A stretch of DNA of 64,000 bases. Source: Escherichia coli. GTDB lineage: Bacteria; Pseudomonadota; Gammaproteobacteria; Enterobacterales; Enterobacteriaceae. Location: NCBI RefSeq assembly GCF_001677475.2, contig NZ_CP015229.1; one strand, 5' to 3'. Both the position numbers and the translations under genes were made by a program. The notes under the pieces are model-generated. The model was not told where the DNA came from, made no database searches, and saw nothing but the letters and a program-made list of their open reading frames with translations. Below, one piece after another: positions 1 to 56,963 of this stretch (position 1 is its first letter; every line of letters begins with the position of its first letter).

Positions 1-560
1 TGAACAGCCTGTGCCTGAGCCGGAGTTGCAGATTTGCCAGTACCGATTGCCCATACAGGTTCGTAAGCGATAACCGCACCTTCGAATGCCGCAGCACCCT
101 GAGTTTTCAGTACCGCGTCGATCTGACGTGCGCAAACTTCTTCAGTTTTTCCCGCTTCGTTTTCAGCTTCGGTTTCACCGATGCACAGAACCGGAGTCAG
201 ACCCTGCTCTTTCAGCACCGCGAATTTTTTCGCGATCAGTTCGTCAGACTCGTTGTGGTAAGTACGACGTTCAGAGTGGCCGATGATGATGTACTGTGCG
301 CCGATGTCTTTCAGCATAGCAGCAGAGGTTTCACCGGTGAATGCGCCGGACAGGTTCAGGTCCACGTTTTGCGCACCCAGCATGATGTGGCTGCCTTCAG
401 CTTCGCGCTTCGCCATATCGATGTACATTTCCGGTGGTGCGATTGCAACCGCACAGCCAGCAACACCTGCCAGCTCTTTACGCAGGTTAGAAACCAGCTC
501 GTGAACCATGTGGCGGCTGCCGTTCAGTTTCCAGTTACCCATCACTAAAGGATGTCGCAT
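1..560 (-). CDS. tpiA: Triosephosphate isomerase, N-terminal 186 codons; 3' end lies beyond window start
   Basis: Minus-strand ATG at 558-560 opens a frame translating [15 protein letters not shown]...IIGHSERR, recognised as E. coli TpiA; frame runs off the window edge. Confidence 0.9.
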
Positions 561-667
561 TTTAATTCTCCACGCTTATAAGCGAATAAAGGAAGATGGC
601 CGCCCCGCAGGGCAGCAGGTCTGTGAAACAGTATAGAGATTCATCGGCACAAAGGCTTTGCTTTTTG

Positions 668-1267
668 TCATTTATTCAAACCTTCAAGCGATTCAGATAG
701 CGCCAGCTTAATCGGTTCAACAGCGAAGGTCAGCCCCTTTTCGCCGTTGTCCGCGACAACATAACGCAGTGCACCTTCTGTCTCGGTGTAATAACGTTTG
801 TTTTTCCCCGCCGTTAGTAGCGACTGCAGTTTTTTCTGGCTTTGTGTTTTGGTCATTAATGGGGTGAGTGTGCGGATCACTGCTGCCATGTATTCCTGAG
901 CTTTCGCTTTCGCTGCTTTTTGCTCTGGCCCCTGGATGGGTAGCCAGGTCATTTGAATGCTTTTGATTTTTAAGGTACCGCGCTCCAGCGCAGTAGACGC
1001 ATACAAATTCTCGTTAATTTTACTTGCAGCACGAGTGAGATTGGCTTTGTCGGGACTGCTGTCGATGGCACGAAATTCGTTCAGTGGCAGGCTGGGATTC
1101 TGGCTGTTAAAGTCTTCTCGAAACTGGCTGATGGAGAGATCGAAAGTAGGGGCTCCAGCCAGCAGATAAGGCGCGGTCGTTGCCGTATCTGGTGTTTGTG
1201 CATGCGCCGTTGTTGTAACGGTTAATGCAGAACATAAGAGAAAAAACAGCGTACACCCTGGCTTCAT
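668..1267 (-). CDS. yiiQ: DUF1454 periplasmic protein YiiQ (199 aa) with signal peptide
   Basis: ORF track 199 aa; N-terminal hydrophobic signal (MKPGCTLFFLLCSALTVTTTAHA); position between tpiA and yiiR as in K-12. Confidence 0.85.
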   Translation of the reverse strand: MKPGCTLFFLLCSALTVTTTAHAQTPDTATTAPYLLAGAPTFDLSISQFREDFNSQNPSLPLNEFRAIDSSPDKANLTRAASKINENLYASTALERGTLKIKSIQMTWLPIQGPEQKAAKAKAQEYMAAVIRTLTPLMTKTQSQKKLQSLLTAGKNKRYYTETEGALRYVVADNGEKGLTFAVEPIKLALSESLEGLNK

Positions 1268-1367
1268 TGACAGTACCTTTTGTTATGACTGGCTCCGATT
1301 AAAACGATATCTGTCGCCCTTGTCAAAAGGGTAGAATCCTGGAAAAGACAACCATCAAGGAACTTAC

Positions 1368-1808
1368 ATGACCATACAGCAATGGTTATTCTCATTTAAA
1401 GGGCGTATTGGACGCCGTGATTTCTGGATTTGGATAGGCCTGTGGTTCGCAGGCATGCTGGTGCTTTTCTCACTGGCGGGTAAAAATTTACTCGATATTC
1501 AGACCGCGGCGTTTTGCCTTGTGTGCTTGCTTTGGCCAACAGCGGCAGTAACCGTTAAGCGCTTGCATGATCGCGGGCGTTCCGGCGCATGGGCATTTCT
1601 GATGATTGTGGCGTGGATGCTGCTGGCGGGTAACTGGGCGATTTTACCGGGTGTCTGGCAATGGGCGGTGGGGCGTTTTGTCCCGACGTTGATTCTGGTG
1701 ATGATGCTTATCGATCTTGGTGCGTTTGTTGGCACACAAGGCGAAAATAAATATGGTAAAGATACCCAGGATGTGAAGTATAAAGCCGACAATAAATCAA
1801 GTAATTAA
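1368..1808 (+). CDS. yiiR: DUF805 inner-membrane protein YiiR (146 aa)
   Basis: ORF 146 aa, hydrophobic segments, conserved synteny. Confidence 0.85.
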   Translation: MTIQQWLFSFKGRIGRRDFWIWIGLWFAGMLVLFSLAGKNLLDIQTAAFCLVCLLWPTAAVTVKRLHDRGRSGAWAFLMIVAWMLLAGNWAILPGVWQWAVGRFVPTLILVMMLIDLGAFVGTQGENKYGKDTQDVKYKADNKSSN

Positions 1809-2019
1809 CCTTTAATATATCTCTTACTGCTATTTTTTTCCGGGATTGTTATTTCCACGATGCAAATGACAATGCCCGGAAAATCCTTCTGAACTCTTCA
1901 CCTTAAGCAATATCAAAAAAAATGGTAATCCATAAGATCATTACTTGTTTGTTCTTCCCTTAACGGCGCATTATTCTTAAGTCGTAATCGACAGAGAGGC
2001 GAATATACAGAGGTGCCCT

Positions 2020-2319
2020 ATGAAAGATGTCGTAGATAAATGCAGTACTAAAGGATGTGCGATTGATATCGGTACGGTGATTGATAACGACAACTGTACC
2101 AGTAAGTTTTCGCGCTTTTTTGCCACCCGCGAAGAAGCAGAGTCCTTTATGACCAAACTGAAAGAGCTTGCCGCCGCTGCATCCTCTGCAGATGAAGGGG
2201 CCAGCGTGGCCTATAAGATTAAGGATCTGGAGGGGCAAGTTGAGCTTGATGCGGCCTTCACCTTCTCATGCCAGGCCGAGATGATTATTTTTGAGTTATC
2301 ACTGCGTTCGTTAGCTTGA
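2020..2319 (+). CDS. yiiS: UPF0381/DUF406 protein YiiS (99 aa)
   Basis: ORF 99 aa immediately upstream of uspD, matching K-12 synteny. Confidence 0.8.
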
Positions 2320-2345
2320 TGGAGTTGCTTTAGAAGGAGTTAAAC

Positions 2346-2774
2346 ATGGCTTATAAACACATTGGCGTGGCAATTTCCGGGAATGAAGAAGATGCCTTAC
2401 TGGTGAATAAAGCCCTGGAGCTCGCCAGACATAATGACGCTCACCTGACGTTAATTCATATTGATGATGGCTTAAGCGAGTTGTATCCGGGTATCTACTT
2501 CCCTGCAACAGAAGATATTCTTCAATTGTTGAAGAATAAGTCGGATAACAAGCTGTATAAACTGACGAAAAATATTCAATGGCCGAAGACAAAACTGCGT
2601 ATTGAACGCGGAGAAATGCCGGAAACACTGCTGGAAATTATGCAAAAAGAGCAGTGCGACCTCCTTGTCTGTGGTCATCATCACTCATTTATCAACCGTT
2701 TGATGCCGGCATATCGCGGGATGATCAATAAGTTGAGTGCGGATTTGCTCATCGTGCCGTTTATCGATAAGTAA
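2346..2774 (+). CDS. uspD: Universal stress protein D (142 aa)
   Basis: ORF 142 aa with UspA-like fold sequence; RBS GGAG upstream. Confidence 0.9.
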
Positions 2775-2778
2775 CCGC

Positions 2779-3525
2779 TTACCAGTAATGCTCCGCTGTC
2801 ATATGGCCCGGTCGGCGACGTAAATGTTTCGTCATCTGCCGGGTCTCTTTTAGCAACTGTTGTGTATCGCGCACCATCTGTGGATTGCCGCACAGCATCA
2901 CATGGCTGGTTTCTTTATTCATCGGCAGGCCAATCGCGCTTTCCAGTTCACCACTTTCAATTAACGCCGGTATCCGCCCGGTGAGTGATCCCGCCGCCGT
3001 TTCCCGACTGACCACCGTCTGAATGCGCAGTTTCCCTTCGTAGCGTTTTTCCAGTTCTTGCATCAGTGGCAAATAGCTTAAGTCGGCGGCATAACGTGCG
3101 GCGTGAACCAGGACCAGATTTTTGAAGCGATCTAAATCTTTGCCTAGTTGCAGAATCGATAAATAAGGGCCAATCGCTGTACCGGTTGCCAGCATCCATA
3201 GCGTTTCGCAATCTGGTACTTCCTCCAGAACAAAGAAACCAGCTGCTTCGCTAACTACCTGCACTTCATCGCCCGGTTTCAGTGCCGCCAGTCGTGGGCT
3301 TAATTTGCCATCGGGGACGGTGACCAGGTAAAACTCCAGATCGGGATTATCGGGCGAGTTAACATAGGAGTAGGCGCGCTGGACGCGTTCGCCGTCGATT
3401 TCAAGGCCAAGCTTGGTGAATTGCCCGGCGGTAAACGGAAGCACGGGGGCGTGAACGGTGAGACTAAACAGGGCGTCGGTCCAGTTCTGCACTTTAGTGA
3501 CTTTGCCTGTTACCCAATCAGCCAT
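2779..3525 (-). CDS. fpr: Ferredoxin/flavodoxin-NADP+ reductase (248 aa)
   Basis: ORF 248 aa, recognised as E. coli Fpr (MADWVTGKVTKVQNWTDALFSL...). Confidence 0.92.
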   Translation of the reverse strand: MADWVTGKVTKVQNWTDALFSLTVHAPVLPFTAGQFTKLGLEIDGERVQRAYSYVNSPDNPDLEFYLVTVPDGKLSPRLAALKPGDEVQVVSEAAGFFVLEEVPDCETLWMLATGTAIGPYLSILQLGKDLDRFKNLVLVHAARYAADLSYLPLMQELEKRYEGKLRIQTVVSRETAAGSLTGRIPALIESGELESAIGLPMNKETSHVMLCGNPQMVRDTQQLLKETRQMTKHLRRRPGHMTAEHYW

Positions 3526-3574: not shown

Positions 3575-3605
3575 AAAAATTCCAGTCCCGAAGGACTGGA
3601 AGGCT
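3575..3605 (-). terminator. Rho-independent terminator downstream of glpX
   Basis: Hairpin ccagtcc-ttcg-ggactgg followed on the minus strand by a U-run (plus strand aaaaaaatt). Confidence 0.6.
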
Positions 3606-3621
3606 CAATCGATCAAATCAA

Positions 3622-4632
3622 TCAGAGGATGTGCACCTGCATTTCCGGGTCTTTGCGATCCAGATAGTGGATAGACTGAATGCGGCGAATGGTGCGTGAC
3701 TTGCCGCGGATCAGCAGAGTTTCGGTAGTCGCGATATTGCCTTTGCGGCTAATGCCTTCCAGCAGATCGCCTTTGGTAATACCGGTGGCAGAGAAGATGA
3801 CGTTATCGCTGCGCGCCATATCGCCCAGACGCAATACTTTACCGGCTTCGATGCCCATCGCTTTGCAGCGTGCCAGCTCCTGCTCGCCAATGCGACGATT
3901 CTCTTCGTTGTCGCCTTTGACGTCATGACGCGCCAGCAGACGACCATTCATGTCGCCATCTAATGCGCGGATCACCGCCGCAGAAACTACGCCTTCCGGC
4001 GCGCCACCAATACCGTACAGCACGTCAACTTCGCTGTCTGGCATACAGGTGAGAATTGAGGCCGCAACGTCGCCATCCGGAATAGCAAATACGCGTACGC
4101 CGAGTTGCTGCATTTCAGCGATAACGGCATCGTGGCGTGGTTTAGCCAGAATCGTTACCGTCAGTTCGCTCAACGGTTTGCCGAGCGCCGCCGCAACATT
4201 GCGCAGGTTATCCGCCAGCGGCAGGTTCAGATCAATGGTGCCTTTGGCTCCCGGCCCGACAATCAGCTTCTCCATATACATATCCGGCGCATTGAGGAAG
4301 CAGCCTTTATCGCCTACTGCCAGCACCGCCAGCGCGTTAGCCTGGCCCATCGCCGTCATGCGCGTGCCTTCAATCGGATCAACAGCAATATCTACCGCGT
4401 CGCCGCGACCAGTACCGACTTTTTCACCAATGTAGAGCATCGGTGCTTCGTCGATTTCACCTTCACCAATGACGATGGTGCCGTCAATGTTGACCTGGTT
4501 GAGCATAATACGCATGGCGTTTACCGCCGCGCCGTCCGCGGTGTTTTTATCGCCGCGTCCTAACCATTTGTAGCCAGCCAGCGCCGCTGATTCGGTGACG
4601 CGGGAAAATTCGATGGCAAGTTCTCGTCTCAT
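3622..4632 (-). CDS. glpX: Fructose-1,6-bisphosphatase class II (336 aa)
   Basis: ORF 336 aa recognised as GlpX; last gene of glpFKX operon. Confidence 0.92.
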   Translation of the reverse strand: MRRELAIEFSRVTESAALAGYKWLGRGDKNTADGAAVNAMRIMLNQVNIDGTIVIGEGEIDEAPMLYIGEKVGTGRGDAVDIAVDPIEGTRMTAMGQANALAVLAVGDKGCFLNAPDMYMEKLIVGPGAKGTIDLNLPLADNLRNVAAALGKPLSELTVTILAKPRHDAVIAEMQQLGVRVFAIPDGDVAASILTCMPDSEVDVLYGIGGAPEGVVSAAVIRALDGDMNGRLLARHDVKGDNEENRRIGEQELARCKAMGIEAGKVLRLGDMARSDNVIFSATGITKGDLLEGISRKGNIATTETLLIRGKSRTIRRIQSIHYLDRKDPEMQVHIL

Positions 4633-49554: not shown

Positions 49555-50472
49555 ATGAATATTCGTGATCTTGAGTACCTGGTGGCATTGGCCGAACACC
49601 GCCATTTTCGGCGTGCGGCAGATTCCTGCCACGTTAGCCAGCCGACGCTTAGCGGCCAAATTCGTAAGCTGGAAGATGAGCTGGGCGTGATGTTGCTGGA
49701 GCGGACCAGCCGTAAAGTGTTGTTCACCCAGGCGGGAATGCTGCTGGTGGATCAGGCGCGTACCGTGCTGCGTGAGGTGAAAGTCCTTAAAGAGATGGCA
49801 AGCCAGCAGGGCGAGACGATGTCCGGACCGCTGCATATTGGTTTGATTCCTACGGTTGGACCGTACCTGCTACCGCATATTATCCCGATGCTGCACCAGA
49901 CATTTCCAAAGCTGGAAATGTATCTGCATGAAGCACAGACCCACCAGTTACTGGCGCAACTGGACAGCGGCAAACTCGATTGCGTGATCCTCGCGCTGGT
50001 GAAAGAGAGCGAAGCATTCATTGAAGTGCCGTTGTTTGATGAGCCAATGTTGCTGGCTATCTATGAAGATCACCCGTGGGCGAACCGCGAATGCGTACCG
50101 ATGGCCGATCTGGCAGGGGAAAAACTGCTGATGCTGGAAGATGGTCACTGTTTGCGCGATCAGGCAATGGGTTTCTGTTTTGAAGCCGGGGCGGATGAAG
50201 ATACACACTTCCGCGCGACCAGCCTGGAGACGCTGCGCAACATGGTGGCGGCAGGTAGCGGGATCACTTTACTGCCAGCGCTGGCTGTGCCGCCGGAGCG
50301 CAAACGCGATGGGGTTGTTTATCTGCCGTGCATTAAGCCGGAACCACGCCGCACTATTGGCCTGGTTTATCGTCCTGGCTCACCGCTGCGCAGCCGCTAT
50401 GAGCAGCTGGCAGAGGCCATCCGCGCAAGAATGGATGGCCATTTCGATAAAGTGTTAAAACAGGCGGTTTAA
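49555..50472 (+). CDS. oxyR: LysR-family hydrogen-peroxide sensor/regulator OxyR (305 aa)
   Basis: [44 protein letters not shown]; Cys199/Cys208 region present (DGHCLRD ... FCFEAG). Confidence 0.96.
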
Positions 50473-51855
50473 ACCGTTTAACGCAGCTACCCGATAGGCT
50501 TCCGCCATGGTCGGGTAGTTAAAGGTGGTGTTGACGAAGTACTCAATAGTGTTGCCGCCACCTTTCTGTTCCATAATCGCCTGACCGATATGAATAATTT
50601 CGGCAGCGCGCTCGCCAAAGCAGTGAATACCCAGAATCTCTTTTGTTTCCCGATGGAACAAAATTTTCAGCGTGCCCACGTTCATGCCGACGATTTGTGC
50701 ACGTGCCAGATGTTTAAACTGGGCGCGGCCCACTTCATATGGCACTTTCATCGCGGTCAGCTGCTGTTCGGTTTTGCCCACAGAGCTGATTTCCGGGATG
50801 GTGTAAATGCCGGTAGGGATATCTTCAATCAGATGCGCGGTGGCTTCGCCTTTTACCAGCGCCTGCGCGGCAATGCGCCCCTGGTCATAGGCCGCTGATG
50901 CCAGGCTCGGATAACCAATCACGTCGCCCACCGCGTAAACGTGCGGCTGTGCGGTCTGATACATGCTGTTGACCTTCAGCTGTCCGCGACTGTCAGTTTC
51001 CAGCCCAATGTTCTGTAACGCCAGCGAATCGGTATTACCGGTACGACCGTTGGCATAGAGCAGGCAGTCAGCTTTCAGTTTTTTACCCGACTTCAGATGC
51101 ATGATCACACCGTCGTCACAGCCTTCGATCTTCTCGTACTCTTCGTTGTGACGAATCACTACGCCACTGTTCCAGAAGTGATAGGAGAGAGAATCTGACA
51201 TCTCTTGATCGAGAAATGCCAGCAGGCGATCGCGGGTGTTGATCAGATCCACTTTTACATCCATACCGCGGAAGATCGACGCATATTCACAGCCGATCAC
51301 TCCAGCACCATAGATAAGTACATGGCGCGGTTCGTGGTGCATGCTGAGAATTGAGTCGCTGTCGTAAATGCGTGGATGGGTGAAATCAACATCTGTTGGA
51401 TGATATGGACGAGAGCCGCAGGCAATAACAAATTTTTCAGCGGTTAGCGTTTCAACGCTGCCGTCCGGGCAATCCAGCGCCAACGTATGCTCGTCAACAA
51501 AGCGAGCGTTCCCCTGCAATATTTCACAGTGATTACGTTCGTAAAATCCCTGACGCATGCGCGTTTGTTGATTAATCACGTTATCGGCATGGTTAAGGAT
51601 ATCGGCAAAAGAAGAGCGGAGCAGTCGGGAATGGTCGCTGTATAGTGGGTTTTGATTGAATTCTATAATGCGGCTGACGGCGTGACGGAGAGCTTTCGAC
51701 GGGATGGTGCCCCAGTGGGTGCAACCGCCGCCAACATTTTGATAACGCTCGATAACTGCGACGCGCGCACCTTGCTTAACCAGGCCCATTGCAGCGCCTT
51801 CGCCGCCGGGGCCGGAACCTATTACTATGGCATCGTAATCGTAGGAATGTGGCAT
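50455..51855 (-). CDS. sthA: Soluble pyridine nucleotide transhydrogenase (466 aa)
   Basis: [28 protein letters not shown]-binding N-terminus; 3' end overlaps oxyR 3' end convergently by 18 nt. Confidence 0.95.
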
Positions 51856-52184
51856 GGTAGGGCTTACCTGTTCTTATACATAAAAGCAACAGAATGGTAA
51901 CATTTTATCGCGGGTAAGCCAATTGATCCCCGTCATTAATCTGGCTATAGCGTGAGCGGCCTTTGCTTTGTCTGCCCCCTTCTTAACCCATTTATTTACT
52001 ATTAATCGCTTTTTCTTATGGCTGATAGTTTTATCTTGCCGAAGCGTGCTTTTTTGTTATTGTCTTTATGAAATATTCTTATAAAACAAACATATAAATA
52101 TTTTATATTGATGAGTTATTTGTATTTATACCATCAATAAAATCCGTTAATTAGCCTGTTTATAAGTGAATAAAGGAATAGCCG

Positions 52185-53351
52185 ATGATCGAACACTATA
52201 TTCGAGGGTTTGAGGAAGAACTGCGTGAGATCCGCCATCAGATCCACGAAAACCCGGAGCTGGGATTACAAGAATTTAAAACCAGTGCTTTGGTGGCGGA
52301 AAAGCTGCGTCAGTGGGGCTATGAAGTAGAGCAAGGACTGGCGACGACGGGGATAGTGGCCACGTTAAAAGTGGGCGACGGAGAGAAAAGTATTGGCCTG
52401 CGGGCGGATATGGATGCGCTGCCAATTTATGAAAATAGTGGCAAGCCCTGGGCCAGTAAACATCCTGGTTTAATGCACGCCTGCGGGCATGACGGGCATA
52501 CCACCATACTGCTGGGGGCCGCGCGTTATTTTGCCGAAACCCGCCGTTTTAACGGCACGTTACGTCTTATCTTCCAGCCTGCGGAAGAGATGATTAACGG
52601 CGGTGAGATCATGGTTAAAGAGGGGCTTTTTGATCATTTCCCCTGCGATGTCATTTTCGGCATGCATAACATGCCCGGTCTGCCGGTGGGTAAGTTTTAT
52701 TTCCAGCCAGGGGAACTGATGGCGTCAATGGATCAGTTCCATATTACAGTTCGTGGTTGTGGCGGACACGGTGCGATCCCGCACAAAGCCATCGATCCGG
52801 TGCTGGTTGCCGCACATATCACCACCGCATTACAAAGCATTGTGTCGCGCAATGTCGATCCGCTGGAAGCGGCGGTAATTACCGTCGGCAGCATTGTTGC
52901 GGGTGAGGCGGCTAACGTCATTCCTGACAGTGCTGAGATGAAAATCAGCGTCCGCTCTCTTAGCCGCGATACCCGACAACTTCTTCTGACCCGTATTCCT
53001 GCTCTGGCACAAACCCAGGCTGCCAGCTTTGGTGCTACGGCTGAGGTTACGCATGTTAACGGTACACCGGTATTAGTGAATGACGAGGAGATGGCGCGCT
53101 TCGCCTGGCAGGTGGCGTGTAAAACGTTTGGTGAAGATCGGGCCGAGTTTGGCATCAAGCCCCTGATGGGCAGTGAGGATTTCTCTTTCATGCTGGAAGC
53201 CCAGCCGAAAGGCGCTTTTTTGCTGTTCGGTAATGGCGATGTCGGGGAAGGTTCCTGCATGGTGCATAACCCGGGTTACGACTTCAACGATGCAAGTCTG
53301 GTCCCGGCATGCAGCTACTGGGGCGCACTGGTAGAAGCTTGGCTGCAATAA
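52185..53351 (+). CDS. M20D-family amidohydrolase (hippurate hydrolase / N-acyl-amino-acid amidohydrolase-like), 388 aa; accessory gene not in K-12
   Basis: Metal-binding motifs typical of M20D enzymes (HACGHDGH, ...GEE...); GGAA RBS-like upstream; no paralogue recalled at this locus in K-12. Confidence 0.8.
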   Translation: MIEHYIRGFEEELREIRHQIHENPELGLQEFKTSALVAEKLRQWGYEVEQGLATTGIVATLKVGDGEKSIGLRADMDALPIYENSGKPWASKHPGLMHACGHDGHTTILLGAARYFAETRRFNGTLRLIFQPAEEMINGGEIMVKEGLFDHFPCDVIFGMHNMPGLPVGKFYFQPGELMASMDQFHITVRGCGGHGAIPHKAIDPVLVAAHITTALQSIVSRNVDPLEAAVITVGSIVAGEAANVIPDSAEMKISVRSLSRDTRQLLLTRIPALAQTQAASFGATAEVTHVNGTPVLVNDEEMARFAWQVACKTFGEDRAEFGIKPLMGSEDFSFMLEAQPKGAFLLFGNGDVGEGSCMVHNPGYDFNDASLVPACSYWGALVEAWLQ

Positions 53352-53393
53352 ATAAAACAACACACAACAACACTTTTTGGCAAGGAACATGGA

Positions 53394-54710
53394 ATGACGG
53401 CGATCGTAAATGAAACCGTGAGTGTGAAGAAAAAGCCCAGCGGTAAGCGGGTGATTTTTGCTTCGGCGTTTGGCAATGCGCTCGAATTTTTTGATTTTGG
53501 CGTTTACAACTTTTTTGTGGTCTATATCAGTACGCTTTTCTTCCCACCCAGCGCTGATCACAATGTCGCGCTGTTACTGGCATTTGCAACATTTGGCGTG
53601 AGTTTTTTTATGCGCCCGCTTGGTGGAATTATCGTCGGGGCCTGGGCCGATCGCTTCGGACGCAAACCCGCGATGGTGTTCACCATTGCCCTGATGAGCC
53701 TCGGTACACTGATGATCGGCATCGCACCGACGTATGAAACGGCGGGCTATTGGGGAACCGCGACGCTGGTGCTGGCGCGTCTAATTCAGGGCGTTGCGGC
53801 AGGAGGCGAAGTCGGTGCCTCAATGTCTTTGTTGGTTGAATCAGCTCCGGCAAATCGTCGCGGCTTTTACAGCAGTTGGTCACTGGCGACTCAAGGCCTG
53901 GCAACAACCTTTGGTGGTGTTGTCGCTTTAGGTTTAAGCGCATGGCTGCCCTTTGCGACAGGTTCAGAAACCGTAATGGCTGAATGGGGCTGGCGTGTGC
54001 CATTTTTTATTGGCGTGTTATTAGCACCTATCGGTTGCTGGTTGCGTCTGAGCCTGGAAAATGACGTACCTGAGCTAGTGCGCAATAAAAAAGCTGCTAC
54101 CAGCGAAAGCGCGTTCTCTCTGCTCCTGCAACATAAGGCGACTATCGTTAACGGCGTTTTACTCGCTATTGGTAGCACGGTCGCAACCTATATCTCCCTC
54201 TTTTATTACGGCACCTGGGCGGCGAAGTATCTGGCGATGCCTCAACATTATTCTCATGCAGCGATGTTACTGGCGGGCGTTATTACGTTTGTGGGTGCGC
54301 TGCTTGTGGGGATGTTGTGCGATTCGGTCGGGCGTAAAAAGCTGATTTTAATCTCCCGTGTGATGGTGCTGATCTGTAGCTGGCCGTCATTCTGGCTGTT
54401 GGTGAATTACCCAAGCCCTGGCATGTTGCTGACGGTGGTTTTCGTGATGGTCAGCTTTACCACGCTTGGCGGTGTGCCGGTAATGTTGCTGATCTCTGAA
54501 CTGTTGCCGAAACGGATTCGGGCATTGGGTTTTGCGCTGGTTTATAGCATTGGTGTGGCAATCTTTGGCGGTTTTGCTCAATATTTCGCTACGCAATCCA
54601 TCGTGTTGCTGGATAGTTTGACAGCTCCGGCGTGGTATTTGGGTGGAGGCACGTTGCTGTCGATGCTGGCGTTGTTGTACGTAAAAGAACCGGCCAAAGA
54701 ATTGCAGTAA
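53394..54710 (+). CDS. MFS transporter, metabolite:H+ symporter (MHS) family-like (438 aa); accessory gene not in K-12
   Basis: ~12 predicted hydrophobic helices; MFS loop motif [10 protein letters not shown]; MHS-like signatures [26 protein letters not shown] (compare ProP/KgtP/ShiA). Confidence 0.8.
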
Positions 54711-54759
54711 ATATGTTTTATTGCGTTACCGTTCATTCACAATACTGGAGCAATCCAGT

Positions 54760-55464
54760 ATGTTCATTCTCTGGTATAGTGCCAGCAGTACTTTTGGCAA
54801 GGATTCAGACATCGTGATGGGCGTAAGAGCGCAACAAAAAGAAAAAACCCGCCGTTCGCTGGTGGAAGCCGCATTTAGCCAATTAAGTGCTGAACGCAGC
54901 TTCGCCAGCCTGAGTTTGCGTGAAGTGGCGCGTGAAGCGGGCATTGCTCCCACCTCTTTTTACCGGCATTTCCGCGACGTAGACGAACTTGGTCTGACCA
55001 TGGTTGATGAGAGCGGTTTGATGCTGCGCCAACTCATGCGCCAGGCGCGTCAGCGTATTGCCAAAGGCGGGAGTGTGATCCGTACCTCGGTCTCCACATT
55101 TATGGAGTTCATCGGTAATAATCCGAACGCCTTCCGGTTATTATTGCGGGAACGCTCCGGCACTTCCGCTGCGTTTCGTGCCGCCGTTGCGCGTGAAATT
55201 CAGCACTTCATTGCGGAACTTGCGGACTATCTGGAACTCGAAAACCACATGCCTCGTGCGTTTACTGAAGCGCAAGCCGAAGCCATGGTGACGATTGTCT
55301 TCAGTGCGGGTGCCGAGGCGTTGGACGTCGGCGTCGAACAACGTCGGCAATTAGAAGAGCGACTGGTACTGCAACTGCGAATGATTTCGAAAGGGGCTTA
55401 TTACTGGTATCGCCGTGAACAAGAGAAAACCGCAACTATTCCGGGAAATGTGAAGGACGAGTAA
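54760..55464 (+). CDS. fabR: TetR-family repressor of unsaturated fatty acid synthesis FabR (234 aa by K-12 annotation; alternative ATG at 54817 gives 215 aa)
   Basis: ...[52 protein letters not shown] TetR HTH; GGAG RBS 9 nt upstream of ATG 54760. Confidence 0.88.
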
Positions 55465-55823
55465 TGAAACAAGCAAATCAAGATAGAGGTACGCTGCTGC
55501 TGGCGTTGGTTGCTGGCTTATCGATTAATGGTACTTTCGCAGCTCTGTTTAGCTCCATAGTGCCATTTTCTGTATTCCCGATTATTTCCCTGGTGCTGAC
55601 GGTTTACTGCCTGCATCAACGTTATCTTAATCGCACTATGCCGGTAGGCTTGCCGGGTCTGGCAGCTGCCTGTTTTATTCTCGGCGTACTGCTGTACAGC
55701 ACGGTAGTTCGTGCGGAATATCCGGATATCGGCTCTAACTTCTTCCCGGCAGTACTCTCCGTCATTATGGTGTTCTGGATTGGCGCGAAGATGCGTAACC
55801 GTAAGCAGGAAGTTGCTGAGTAA
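55464..55823 (+). CDS. yijD: DUF1422 inner-membrane protein YijD (119 aa)
   Basis: ORF 119 aa; ATG overlaps fabR stop (TAATG). Confidence 0.88.
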
Positions 55824-55831
55824 TCGGTATC

Positions 55832-55857
55832 ATGCCGGATGCTGGCGCATCCGGCAT
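55832..55857. terminator. Bidirectional hairpin terminator between yijD and trmA
   Basis: atgccggatgc-tggc-gcatccggcat palindrome (REP-like) between convergent genes. Confidence 0.6.
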
Positions 55858-55862
55858 GGGTT

Positions 55863-56963
55863 TTACTTCGCGGTCAGTAATACGCCGCACTCCATATGGT
55901 GCGTGTAGGGGAACTGATCAAACAGAGCCAGACGTTCGACCTTGTGCGTCTGGCTTAATGTTTCCAGATTCTTGCATAACGTTTCCGGATTGCAGGAGAT
56001 ATACAGAATACGTGGATACGCCTGCACCATTTTCTCGGTTTCACTGTCCAGACCGCTGCGCGGTGGGTCGACAAAAATGGTTTCGCACTGATAACTCTTT
56101 AAGTCGATCCCTTGCAGGCGGTTAAACTCGCGCACACCATTCATCGCCTGAGTAAATTCTTCTGCCGCCATACGAATAATTTGTACGTTATCAATATGGT
56201 TAGCGGCAATGTTGTATTGCGCAGCAGCAACCGACGGCTTAGCGATTTCGGTGGCTAATACCCGATCAAAATTGCGCGCCAGTGCTAATGAAAAGTTACC
56301 GTTGCCGCAGTACAGCTCCAGTAAATCGCCTTTTGAGCCTTTGGTTACGTCCAGCGCCCATTCCAGCATCTGAATATTCATCGCCGCGTTCGGCTGGGTA
56401 AAGCTGTTTTCTACCTGACGGTAGATCATCTCTTTCCCTGCGACCGGCAGACGTTCATCGATGTAATCTTGATCCAGCTCGATTTTGGTTTTCGTTGCCC
56501 GACCAATCAGATGCACATTCAGATTCTGCGCTCGCAGTGCATCGCGCAGGGCTTCCGCTTCCTGACGCCACTCATCATCCAGCTTTTTATGGTACAGCAG
56601 GGAAACCACCGCCTGATTACTCAACGTAGTGAGGTAATCAATCTGGAACAACTTGTGGCGCAGAACGGGATTATTACGCACACCCGCAATCATCGCCGTC
56701 ATCAACTGGTTGATGAGTTCACTGGCAGCGGGGAAGCTATCCACGCGGATGCGGCTTTTGGTTTGTTGATCGAAAATGATGTGGTACAGGTCATCGCCAT
56801 CGTGCCAGATGCGGAACTCCGCGCGCATCCGGTAATGACTGACCGGCGAGCGAAACACTTCCGGAACCAGGTCAGAAAACGGTGCCATCATACTTTGCAA
56901 ACGTACCACTTTTTCGGCTAACTGCGCTTCATACTGTTCTGTTGGAAGGTGTTCGGGGGTCAT
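55863..56963 (-). CDS. trmA: tRNA (uracil54-C5)-methyltransferase (366 aa)
   Basis: ORF 366 aa recognised as TrmA ([29 protein letters not shown]). Confidence 0.94.

Follow-up and report, generated by a model that had tools for sequence, protein, structure and literature searches.

The region that concerns us within the window, the 64,000-nucleotide stretch of Escherichia coli DNA that was analyzed, begins with sthA (50455-51855, minus strand), encoding the soluble pyridine nucleotide transhydrogenase. This gene was taken from the list of open reading frames (ORFs), has RefSeq equivalents in K-12 and PE164, and is 98.9% identical to its K-12 counterpart at the nucleotide level. It is divergent from a two-gene cassette and from fabR, which both lie on the plus strand. 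Next to sthA, sequence alignment delimits an ancestral, sthA-proximal remainder of the old sthA-fabR intergenic region (51856-51924), of which positions 1-69 align with Citrobacter amalonaticus at 85.5% identity and which is visible in 10 genera. Then follow approximately 2.8 kb of acquired cassette DNA (51925-54721, boundaries approximate, plus strand), made up of an AT-rich upstream region, a gene for an M20-family N-acyl-amino-acid amidohydrolase of 388 aa (52185-53351, plus strand; ORF list and profile matches), and a gene for an MFS transporter of the metabolite/H+ symporter type, 438 aa long (53394-54710, plus strand). Downstream of the cassette lie fabR (54814-55464, plus strand, 651 nt), given here in its 216-aa form with the GTG start assigned by PGAP (alternative ATG at 54817), and yijD (55464-55823, plus strand; ORF list and profile matches), which overlaps the fabR stop codon and therefore belongs to the same operon. 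A strong intrinsic terminator comes after yijD (55830-55859, plus strand; 13 pairs, 8 of them G-C, tail GTTTTACTTC), and trmA (55863-56963, ORF list) is encoded beyond it on the minus strand. FabR determines the balance between unsaturated and saturated fatty acids. Between 51700 and 56100 no Rfam family was matched beyond one chance hit (E = 0.57).

The M20 protein scores 358.9 bits against TIGR01891 (cutoff 153.75), and 152.4 and 48.7 bits against Pfam Peptidase_M20 and M20_dimer, respectively. Its nearest solved structures are Bacillus subtilis YxeP, Arabidopsis ILL2 and a Corynebacterium N-acyl-glutamine aminoacylase; structures of this YxeP/ILL2/aminoacylase/M20 family are matched at E = 1e-64 to 1e-70, versus a distant match to an abg-type structure (E = 4e-35). 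The MFS protein matches Pfam Sugar_tr and MFS_1 above their cutoffs as well as NCBIfam metabolite/H+ symporter models, and is on this basis predicted to be a transporter of the general metabolite/H+ symporter type. The more specific name 'citrate-proton symporter' that PGAP gives to this gene is not established, as the score against TIGR00883 (323.2 bits) stays under the cutoff of 443.45. The pairing of an M20 hydrolase with a secondary transporter is the same as in known M20 catabolic cassettes such as E. coli abgABT, yet the transporter in the window is of the MFS metabolite/H+ symporter type rather than AbgT, and the cassette carries no regulator gene. It holds only the two metabolic genes, with no mobility gene, integrase or tRNA site. 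The same M20 and MFS gene pair is also found adjacent in Limnobaculum, in a different genomic context.

The initial annotation had placed the start of fabR at an ATG at 54760, only 49 nt (54711-54759) from the MFS stop codon at 54710. This distance is correct by ORF coordinates and the ATG is indeed in frame, but the real fabR start is almost certainly the GTG at 54814 or the ATG at 54817. RefSeq/PGAP sets the start at the equivalent of GTG 54814, both in K-12 and in one cassette-bearing strain, and the NCBIfam FabR model (NF008402; 414.7 bits, cutoff 151) begins to align at residue 1 of the GTG form, residues 1-206 of which correspond to model positions 1-206. For a broader comparison, 80 loci were collected by a FabR-based scan with one genome per species and scored by tblastn, E. 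fergusonii not being among them. The hexamer GTGATG stands at the fabR start in 75 of these 80 species loci; an ATG at -54 from the GTG occurs in Escherichia only, and half of the species (40/80) have an in-frame stop codon at most 48 nt upstream of the GTG. A Shine-Dalgarno sequence AAGGA (54800-54804, plus strand) precedes the GTG by 9 nt, in a block (GGAAGGATTCAG) that is invariant in our alignment of the region (alignment A2). The ATG of the long, 234-aa fabR annotation (54760-54762, plus strand) lies within the -10 hexamer of the promoter P1 described below, upstream of both mapped start sites, and is probably a wrong start. With translation starting at GTG 54814, the functional gap between the MFS gene and fabR is therefore 103 nt long (54711-54813).

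Two promoters of the sigma-70 class, both mapped in K-12, can be assigned to this gap. P1 is a sigma-70 promoter (54736-54764, plus strand) with a -35 element TTCACA (54736-54741) situated 25 nt from the MFS stop codon, a 17-nt spacer, and a -10 element TATGTT (54759-54764); it reached 9 of 12 matches in the promoter scan with a spacing within 16-18 nt, and its -35 block is recognizable by a loose pattern, GTAAAC(N2-3)..TT[CA]AC, in 59 of the 75 other species. In K-12, directed 5'-RACE on fabR (b3963; DMTSS) located a transcription start site 45 nt before the ATG, the transcript beginning with 'Tggtatagtgccagcagtact' (Mendoza-Vargas et al., 2009; PMC2760140). This start site ('Tggtatagtgcc...', 'Tggtatag...') corresponds to position 54772 of the window, 8 nt past the P1 -10 element, in a place where the K-12 sequence is identical. 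P2 is defined by an extended -10 element, TGGTATAGT (54772-54780, plus strand), with a start site at approximately 54787-54792. It corresponds to a second K-12 start site reported from 454 sequencing at +32 from the then-annotated long start, for which the -10 is printed as 'ctctGGTATAGTgcca' and the extended -10 as 'yes' (PMC2760140, Table S1); transferred to the window, this site falls at about 54792, and its -10 is GGTATAGT with the TG extension. Alignment A2 shows no variation in the element TGGTATAGT, which recurs 40-42 nt ahead of the GTG in 71 of the 80 species. The distance between the start sites reported for K-12 is exactly 20 nt, i.e., the printed tag length minus one, and the two might represent one event reported twice. 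Within the literature consulted, only the study of Mendoza-Vargas and colleagues gave start-site or operon data for fabR; Kim (2012) yielded no match.

We mapped the junction between cassette and fabR by an exact-match walk from the fabR GTG into the K-12 locus, complemented by BLAST. K-12 and the window are 100% identical over the 138 nt upstream of the GTG (54676-54813, plus strand), a segment that comprises the whole fabR promoter region and leader and extends over the MFS stop codon and 32 nt of MFS coding sequence. On the sthA side, 119 nt counted from the sthA start codon match between both sequences with 3 mismatches. Between these two matching stretches lie 73 nt in K-12 versus 2701 nt in the window. 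Of the cassette, K-12 keeps 50 nt at the left end and, at the right, the final 35 nt of the MFS ORF unchanged (54676-54710, plus strand). For the 73-nt filler itself, no convincing homology was found, either by blastn-short against six cassette alleles or in a MAFFT alignment. K-12 and the window differ in the DNA beyond approximately -96 from the P1 start site, but the start site(s) and all promoter elements are contained in the 138-nt identical segment, downstream of the long-form ATG. Among 5425 complete E. coli genomes, cassette-bearing and cassette-less alike, 5399 also match the 131-nt stretch 54700-54830 with an identity of 99% or more. The suggestion of the initial annotation that the native fabR promoter context may differ from that of K-12 does not survive this comparison: both mapped start sites and their -35 and -10 elements are within identical DNA, and the alignment with K-12, which it had named as the check, finds the full K-12 fabR promoter retained downstream of the cassette. 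As judged from sequence, the fabR promoter is the same in cassette-bearing and K-12-type strains. The window resembles the K-12 fabR-yijD operon, for which the start sites were published (Mendoza-Vargas et al., 2009; PMC2760140), in the segment 54676-54813, the -35/-10 elements, the extended -10 and the Shine-Dalgarno sequence, as well as in the start codon and the yijD terminator downstream. The two differ upstream of -96, where in K-12 the 73-nt filler and the 35-nt remnant replace the intact M20-MFS cassette. Since the intact cassette exists only in the form represented by the window, transcripts derived from upstream are possible only in cassette-bearing strains.

The initial annotation had also treated the cassette as an islet inserted relative to K-12, and here the direction has to be reversed, because what K-12 holds is the scar of a deletion, with 35 nt of the MFS ORF left in it. 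That this remnant is genuine MFS coding sequence follows from the C-terminal tail of the protein (VKEPAKELQ*), whose length and K[ED]P motif match those of Limnobaculum and Pragia homologs encoded in an unrelated genomic context. As K-12 retains both the MFS remnant and the left end of the cassette, it is a deletion derivative and not an empty site. The 35-nt remnant is also present, with its own substitutions, in the divergent and cassette-less lineage SCPM-O-B-8794, and is not found in the other genera of alignment A2. Of 5426 complete E. coli genomes, 1505 carry the cassette, including LF82, O157:H7 and an ST131 strain. The K-12 scar is found in 3882, including K-12, BLR(DE3) and O104:H4. 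Beyond E. coli sensu stricto, the cassette occupies the same site in E. coli E69, Escherichia sp. E1V33, Escherichia sp. MOD1-EC7003 and E. albertii. A Logan contig from a more distant enterobacterium likewise carries it at this site, with an MFS gene of 81% identity and sthA- and fabR-type flanks. It was absent from all 75 non-Escherichia species loci of our scan (Salmonella, Citrobacter, Klebsiella, Enterobacter and Kluyvera among them), where sthA and fabR adjoin each other, and the intergenic region measures 191-198 bp in the ten non-Escherichia genera that were read. On the left, the window loses its ancestral homology with these other genera at about position 51924; on the right, the homology begins again at about 54722, 11 nt past the MFS stop codon, where CGTTACCGTTCATTCACAA in the window aligns with CGTAAACAATCATTCACAA in other genera.

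We conclude that the cassette was gained before the Escherichia lineages split and that K-12-type strains lost it later. Among the hallmarks of a horizontally acquired islet, it displays variable presence and absence from related genera, and lacks atypical composition, mobility functions and repeat boundaries. Its coding sequences have a GC content of approximately 0.52, and no target-site duplication was found at its ends, the longest word common to both boundaries being 6 nt. Together with the lack of mobility genes, these traits fit an old and ameliorated acquisition. Across Escherichia lineages, the encoded proteins are highly conserved by tblastn (96-97% identity for M20, 95-97% for MFS), in contrast to a lower nucleotide identity, which goes down to 89.5% for the M20 gene and 88.1% for the MFS gene. 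Such a difference points to purifying selection, and hence to expression of the cassette under some condition.

According to the initial annotation, no hairpin terminator is visible in the gap between the MFS gene and fabR. This holds insofar as there is no canonical terminator, but a hairpin with a folding energy of -10.7 kcal/mol is visible at 54742-54761. Cassette-specific DNA extends only 11 nt past the MFS stop codon, and there is therefore no room for a terminator within the cassette. In the homologous Limnobaculum MFS gene, a canonical terminator directly follows the stop codon (GAACCGACCGGA...TCCGGTCGGTTC, then AGTTTTTTGG), consisting of a 12-bp G+C-rich stem and a run of six T (TTTTTT). 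Folding of the RNA 54700-54790 revealed a weak AU-rich hairpin across the MFS stop codon (54704-54725, plus strand), which is probably not a functional terminator since no U tract follows it. The terminator scan flagged two sites in the gap, 54742-54761 and 54771-54785, the second of which is no more stable than its shuffles (z = -0.32). Matches of this kind occur in the region at chance frequency (6 observed versus 5.7 +/- 2.4 expected). With the same scan and folding, the yijD terminator, used as positive control, reached -25.1 kcal/mol and z = -5.38; no canonical terminator occurs between the cassette and this one. Rho-dependent termination was also considered and is unlikely, with only 103 untranslated nt and, judged by eye and not by count, no excess of C over G.

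The element at 54742-54761 (plus strand) is a perfect palindrome, ATACTGGA-GCAA-TCCAGTAT, which sits exactly within the P1 spacer. Its 8-bp stem is perfect and closed by a GCAA loop, its energy corresponds to z = -2.67, and 4 of 200 shuffles fold as well. By a rough estimate that was not computed, a perfect repeat with 8-bp arms would arise by chance in 103 nt in about 1% of cases. Like intrinsic terminators, the hairpin has a stem capped by a tetraloop and followed by a 3' tail that is U-rich in part. It is unlike them in its G+C-poor stem (only 3 G-C pairs), its interrupted U tract, its occurrence at a rate not above chance and its overlap with a promoter spacer. No run of more than 2 U is found in the tail GUUCAUUCUCU, and the stretch GUUCAUUC has 4 U in 8, again interrupted. 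The palindrome is specific to Escherichia; one arm carries a mismatch in E69, E1V33, MOD1-EC7003, SCPM-O-B-8794 and E. albertii, and no compensatory changes in the stem were seen in alignment A2. It could be a weak terminator, an insulator, an operator or other protein-binding palindrome, or a product of chance. As it is more stable than 98% of its shuffles and combines a GNRA loop with a tail partly rich in U, an appreciable share of transcripts could end there.

Taking these observations together, we give somewhat better than an even chance to a joint reading in which a native fabR promoter and leader stand behind an ancestral cassette that was lost in K-12, and in which transcription of the cassette reads through into fabR. 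Positions 54711-54813 would then be no altered junction but the native promoter and leader of fabR, which are deeply conserved, and both P1 (start site 54772) and P2 (54787-54792) would serve a fabR gene beginning at GTG 54814 or ATG 54817. In the ancestor of Escherichia, the 2.8-kb cassette would have been inserted, in the orientation of fabR, into a divergent sthA-fabR intergenic region of approximately 197 bp, and would have come without, or later lost, the strong terminator seen after its Limnobaculum homolog. K-12-type strains would subsequently have deleted it, keeping the last 35 nt and a 73-nt filler. During transcription of the cassette, a considerable part of the polymerases would pass the weak hairpin at 54742-54761 and continue through fabR and yijD to the yijD terminator, adding to the transcripts initiated at fabR's own promoters. 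As the cassette ends at fabR and no canonical terminator intervenes, read-through is a reasonable default expectation. The specific proposal of the initial annotation, read-through from the cassette into fabR-yijD, is thus plausible and the best-supported mechanism, at a likelihood that we would set at even or slightly above.

The amount of transcription that reaches the junction bears on this reading. It is possible, although on balance doubtful, that the coupling is real in principle and negligible in physiology, with a cassette that is silent or very weakly expressed and fabR driven by P1 and P2 as in K-12. The promoter-like sites upstream of the M20 gene are indeed all weak, the best one (TTGCCG-16-TGtTATTGT) having 8 of 12 matches, and the GC content of this upstream region drops to 26.5% (52000-52199). 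Such low-GC upstream regions are typical of H-NS-bound regulatory DNA, so that this one may be silenced and little transcription may reach the junction. The cassette has no regulator gene of its own, and its loss from 3882 of 5426 genomes left the fabR promoter unchanged. A literature search for hippuricase in O157 returned only papers on Campylobacter and no expression evidence for the cassette in O157/UPEC. Yet both genes are intact here and in 1505 genomes, and the conservation of the M20 and MFS proteins implies purifying selection and, with it, expression under some condition.

A different objection comes from the palindrome. If it worked as an effective intrinsic terminator or insulator, transcripts of the cassette would end at about 54765-54772 and fabR would be uncoupled from it. 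We consider this unlikely. The stability of the perfect stem with its GCAA tetraloop (-10.7 kcal/mol, z = -2.67) and the fact that it passes the minimal criteria of the terminator scan speak for it; so does its position, as 10 nt separate its end from the P1 start site and it could insulate without disturbing the promoter. Being Escherichia-specific, it also arose in the lineage that holds the cassette. However, with its 3 G-C pairs and the interrupted tail GUUCAUUC it falls far short of the terminators after yijD and in Limnobaculum, similar matches are found as often as expected by chance (6 versus 5.7), its stem shows no covariation and is mismatched in one arm in the further Escherichia lineages that were aligned, and it is fully kept in K-12-type strains, where an insulator is no longer needed. 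A variant that we regard as improbable would have the palindrome evolve after the arrival of the cassette as a dual element, an RNA hairpin pausing or terminating read-through shortly ahead of the fabR start sites and at the same time a DNA operator through which a regulator gates P1. If this were true, cassette-bearing and cassette-less E. coli would differ in how fabR output is set, although their promoter DNA is identical. A related, minor possibility is that the ATG at -54, carried by read-through transcripts only, would allow an N-terminally extended FabR exclusively in cassette-bearing strains.

Read-through could also act in the negative direction, polymerases coming from the cassette occluding P1 and P2 and so lowering or reshaping fabR expression. 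That transcription from upstream can occlude a promoter is well established, and the MFS stop codon precedes the P1 -35 element by only 25 nt with no terminator between them. But read-through transcripts would contain the intact fabR ribosome-binding site and ORF, which makes a positive or neutral net effect on FabR the expected outcome, and a dominant role of occlusion seems quite improbable to us. Finally, that an islet inserted relative to K-12 displaced or altered the native fabR promoter is scarcely credible, since, despite cassette-specific DNA coming as close as 11 nt to the upstream side of the conserved promoter block and the divergence from K-12 beyond about -96, the 138 identical nt include both mapped start sites with their elements, the MFS remnant makes K-12 the derived state, and the promoter stretch is nearly invariant in 5399 genomes of both types.

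The junction as such is an ordinary arrangement of well-known parts. With terminator-less accessory islets that read into core operons, the cassette shares its variable presence, its absence from other genera, its co-orientation with the downstream genes, the lack of a canonical terminator and the scar left in the strains that lost it. It differs from them in being old and ameliorated, devoid of mobility genes, tRNA site and direct repeats, and in leaving the core promoter intact rather than replacing it.

For the interpretation of the locus in E. coli, our analysis implies that those K-12 annotations which begin fabR at the long-form start codon are probably in error, and that the region between sthA and fabR in K-12 is a deletion scar and not the ancestral empty site. 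Because the fabR promoter is equal in both types of strains, promoter data obtained in K-12 should transfer directly to pathogenic lineages. If read-through from the cassette does occur, about a quarter of E. coli strains, including ST131, LF82 and O157:H7, would tie the regulation of their membrane lipids to the use of an N-acyl-amino-acid nutrient.

The cassette of M20 amidohydrolase and MFS transporter genes lying between sthA and fabR is unusually polymorphic within E. coli, as judged from a comparison of window positions 51975-54675 with complete E. coli genomes. Among 5426 such genomes, the top match of the 3.3-kb query was only 97.6% identical, and further matches extended down to 95.2% identity. 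The 131-nt fabR promoter stretch beside the cassette reaches 99% identity or more in almost every E. coli genome. We also found an M20-MFS cassette in an enterobacterium (L083, positions 1-3160 of a Logan contig from run SRR22520363), flanked by sthA-type DNA on one side and fabR-type DNA on the other, and encoding an MFS protein of 447 aa (81% identical). The presence of the same cassette at this locus shows that the insertion has an earlier origin or a wider distribution than is apparent from the named Escherichia species.

The deletion scar of the cassette-less K-12 locus contains a 73-nt filler (positions 1776-1848 of L001, between window-equivalents 51974 and 54676), and this filler shows detectable similarity neither to the cassette nor to intergenic DNA from other genera. 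The same filler, with a few substitutions, is present in SCPM-O-B-8794, a divergent cassette-less lineage, and the scar allele is therefore old, or else was transferred between lineages. In the cassette carrier Escherichia sp. MOD1-EC7003, the M20 upstream region carries an insertion of ~125 bp (L007, ~2223-2340), which looks like an ERIC/IRU repeat, judging by the motif GTGAATCCCCAGGAGCTTACATAAGTAAGTG.

On the fabR side, the 234-aa form of FabR appears to be an annotation artefact: the first codon of its 18-codon N-terminal extension (54760-54813) falls within the -10 hexamer of the fabR promoter P1, upstream of both mapped start sites. A natural case of fabR loss is found in the cattle isolate E. 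coli RM13322, where homology to the window breaks off just 3' of the fabR -10 element (equivalent 54787) and ~808 bp of unrelated, unannotated DNA (L085, ~3586-4392) stands in place of fabR and of the 5' part of yijD, so that yijD carries the annotation of a pseudogene truncated at the N-terminus.

In the non-Escherichia loci (L008-L082), a palindrome, TGTGCT-N15-AGCACA, with conserved arms and a variable centre, lies ~117-124 nt before the fabR GTG, and was matched by the strict pattern in 36 of the 75. It is located in the ancestral sthA-fabR intergenic region, exactly in the segment that the cassette replaced in Escherichia, and may represent a regulator site that was lost in this genus.
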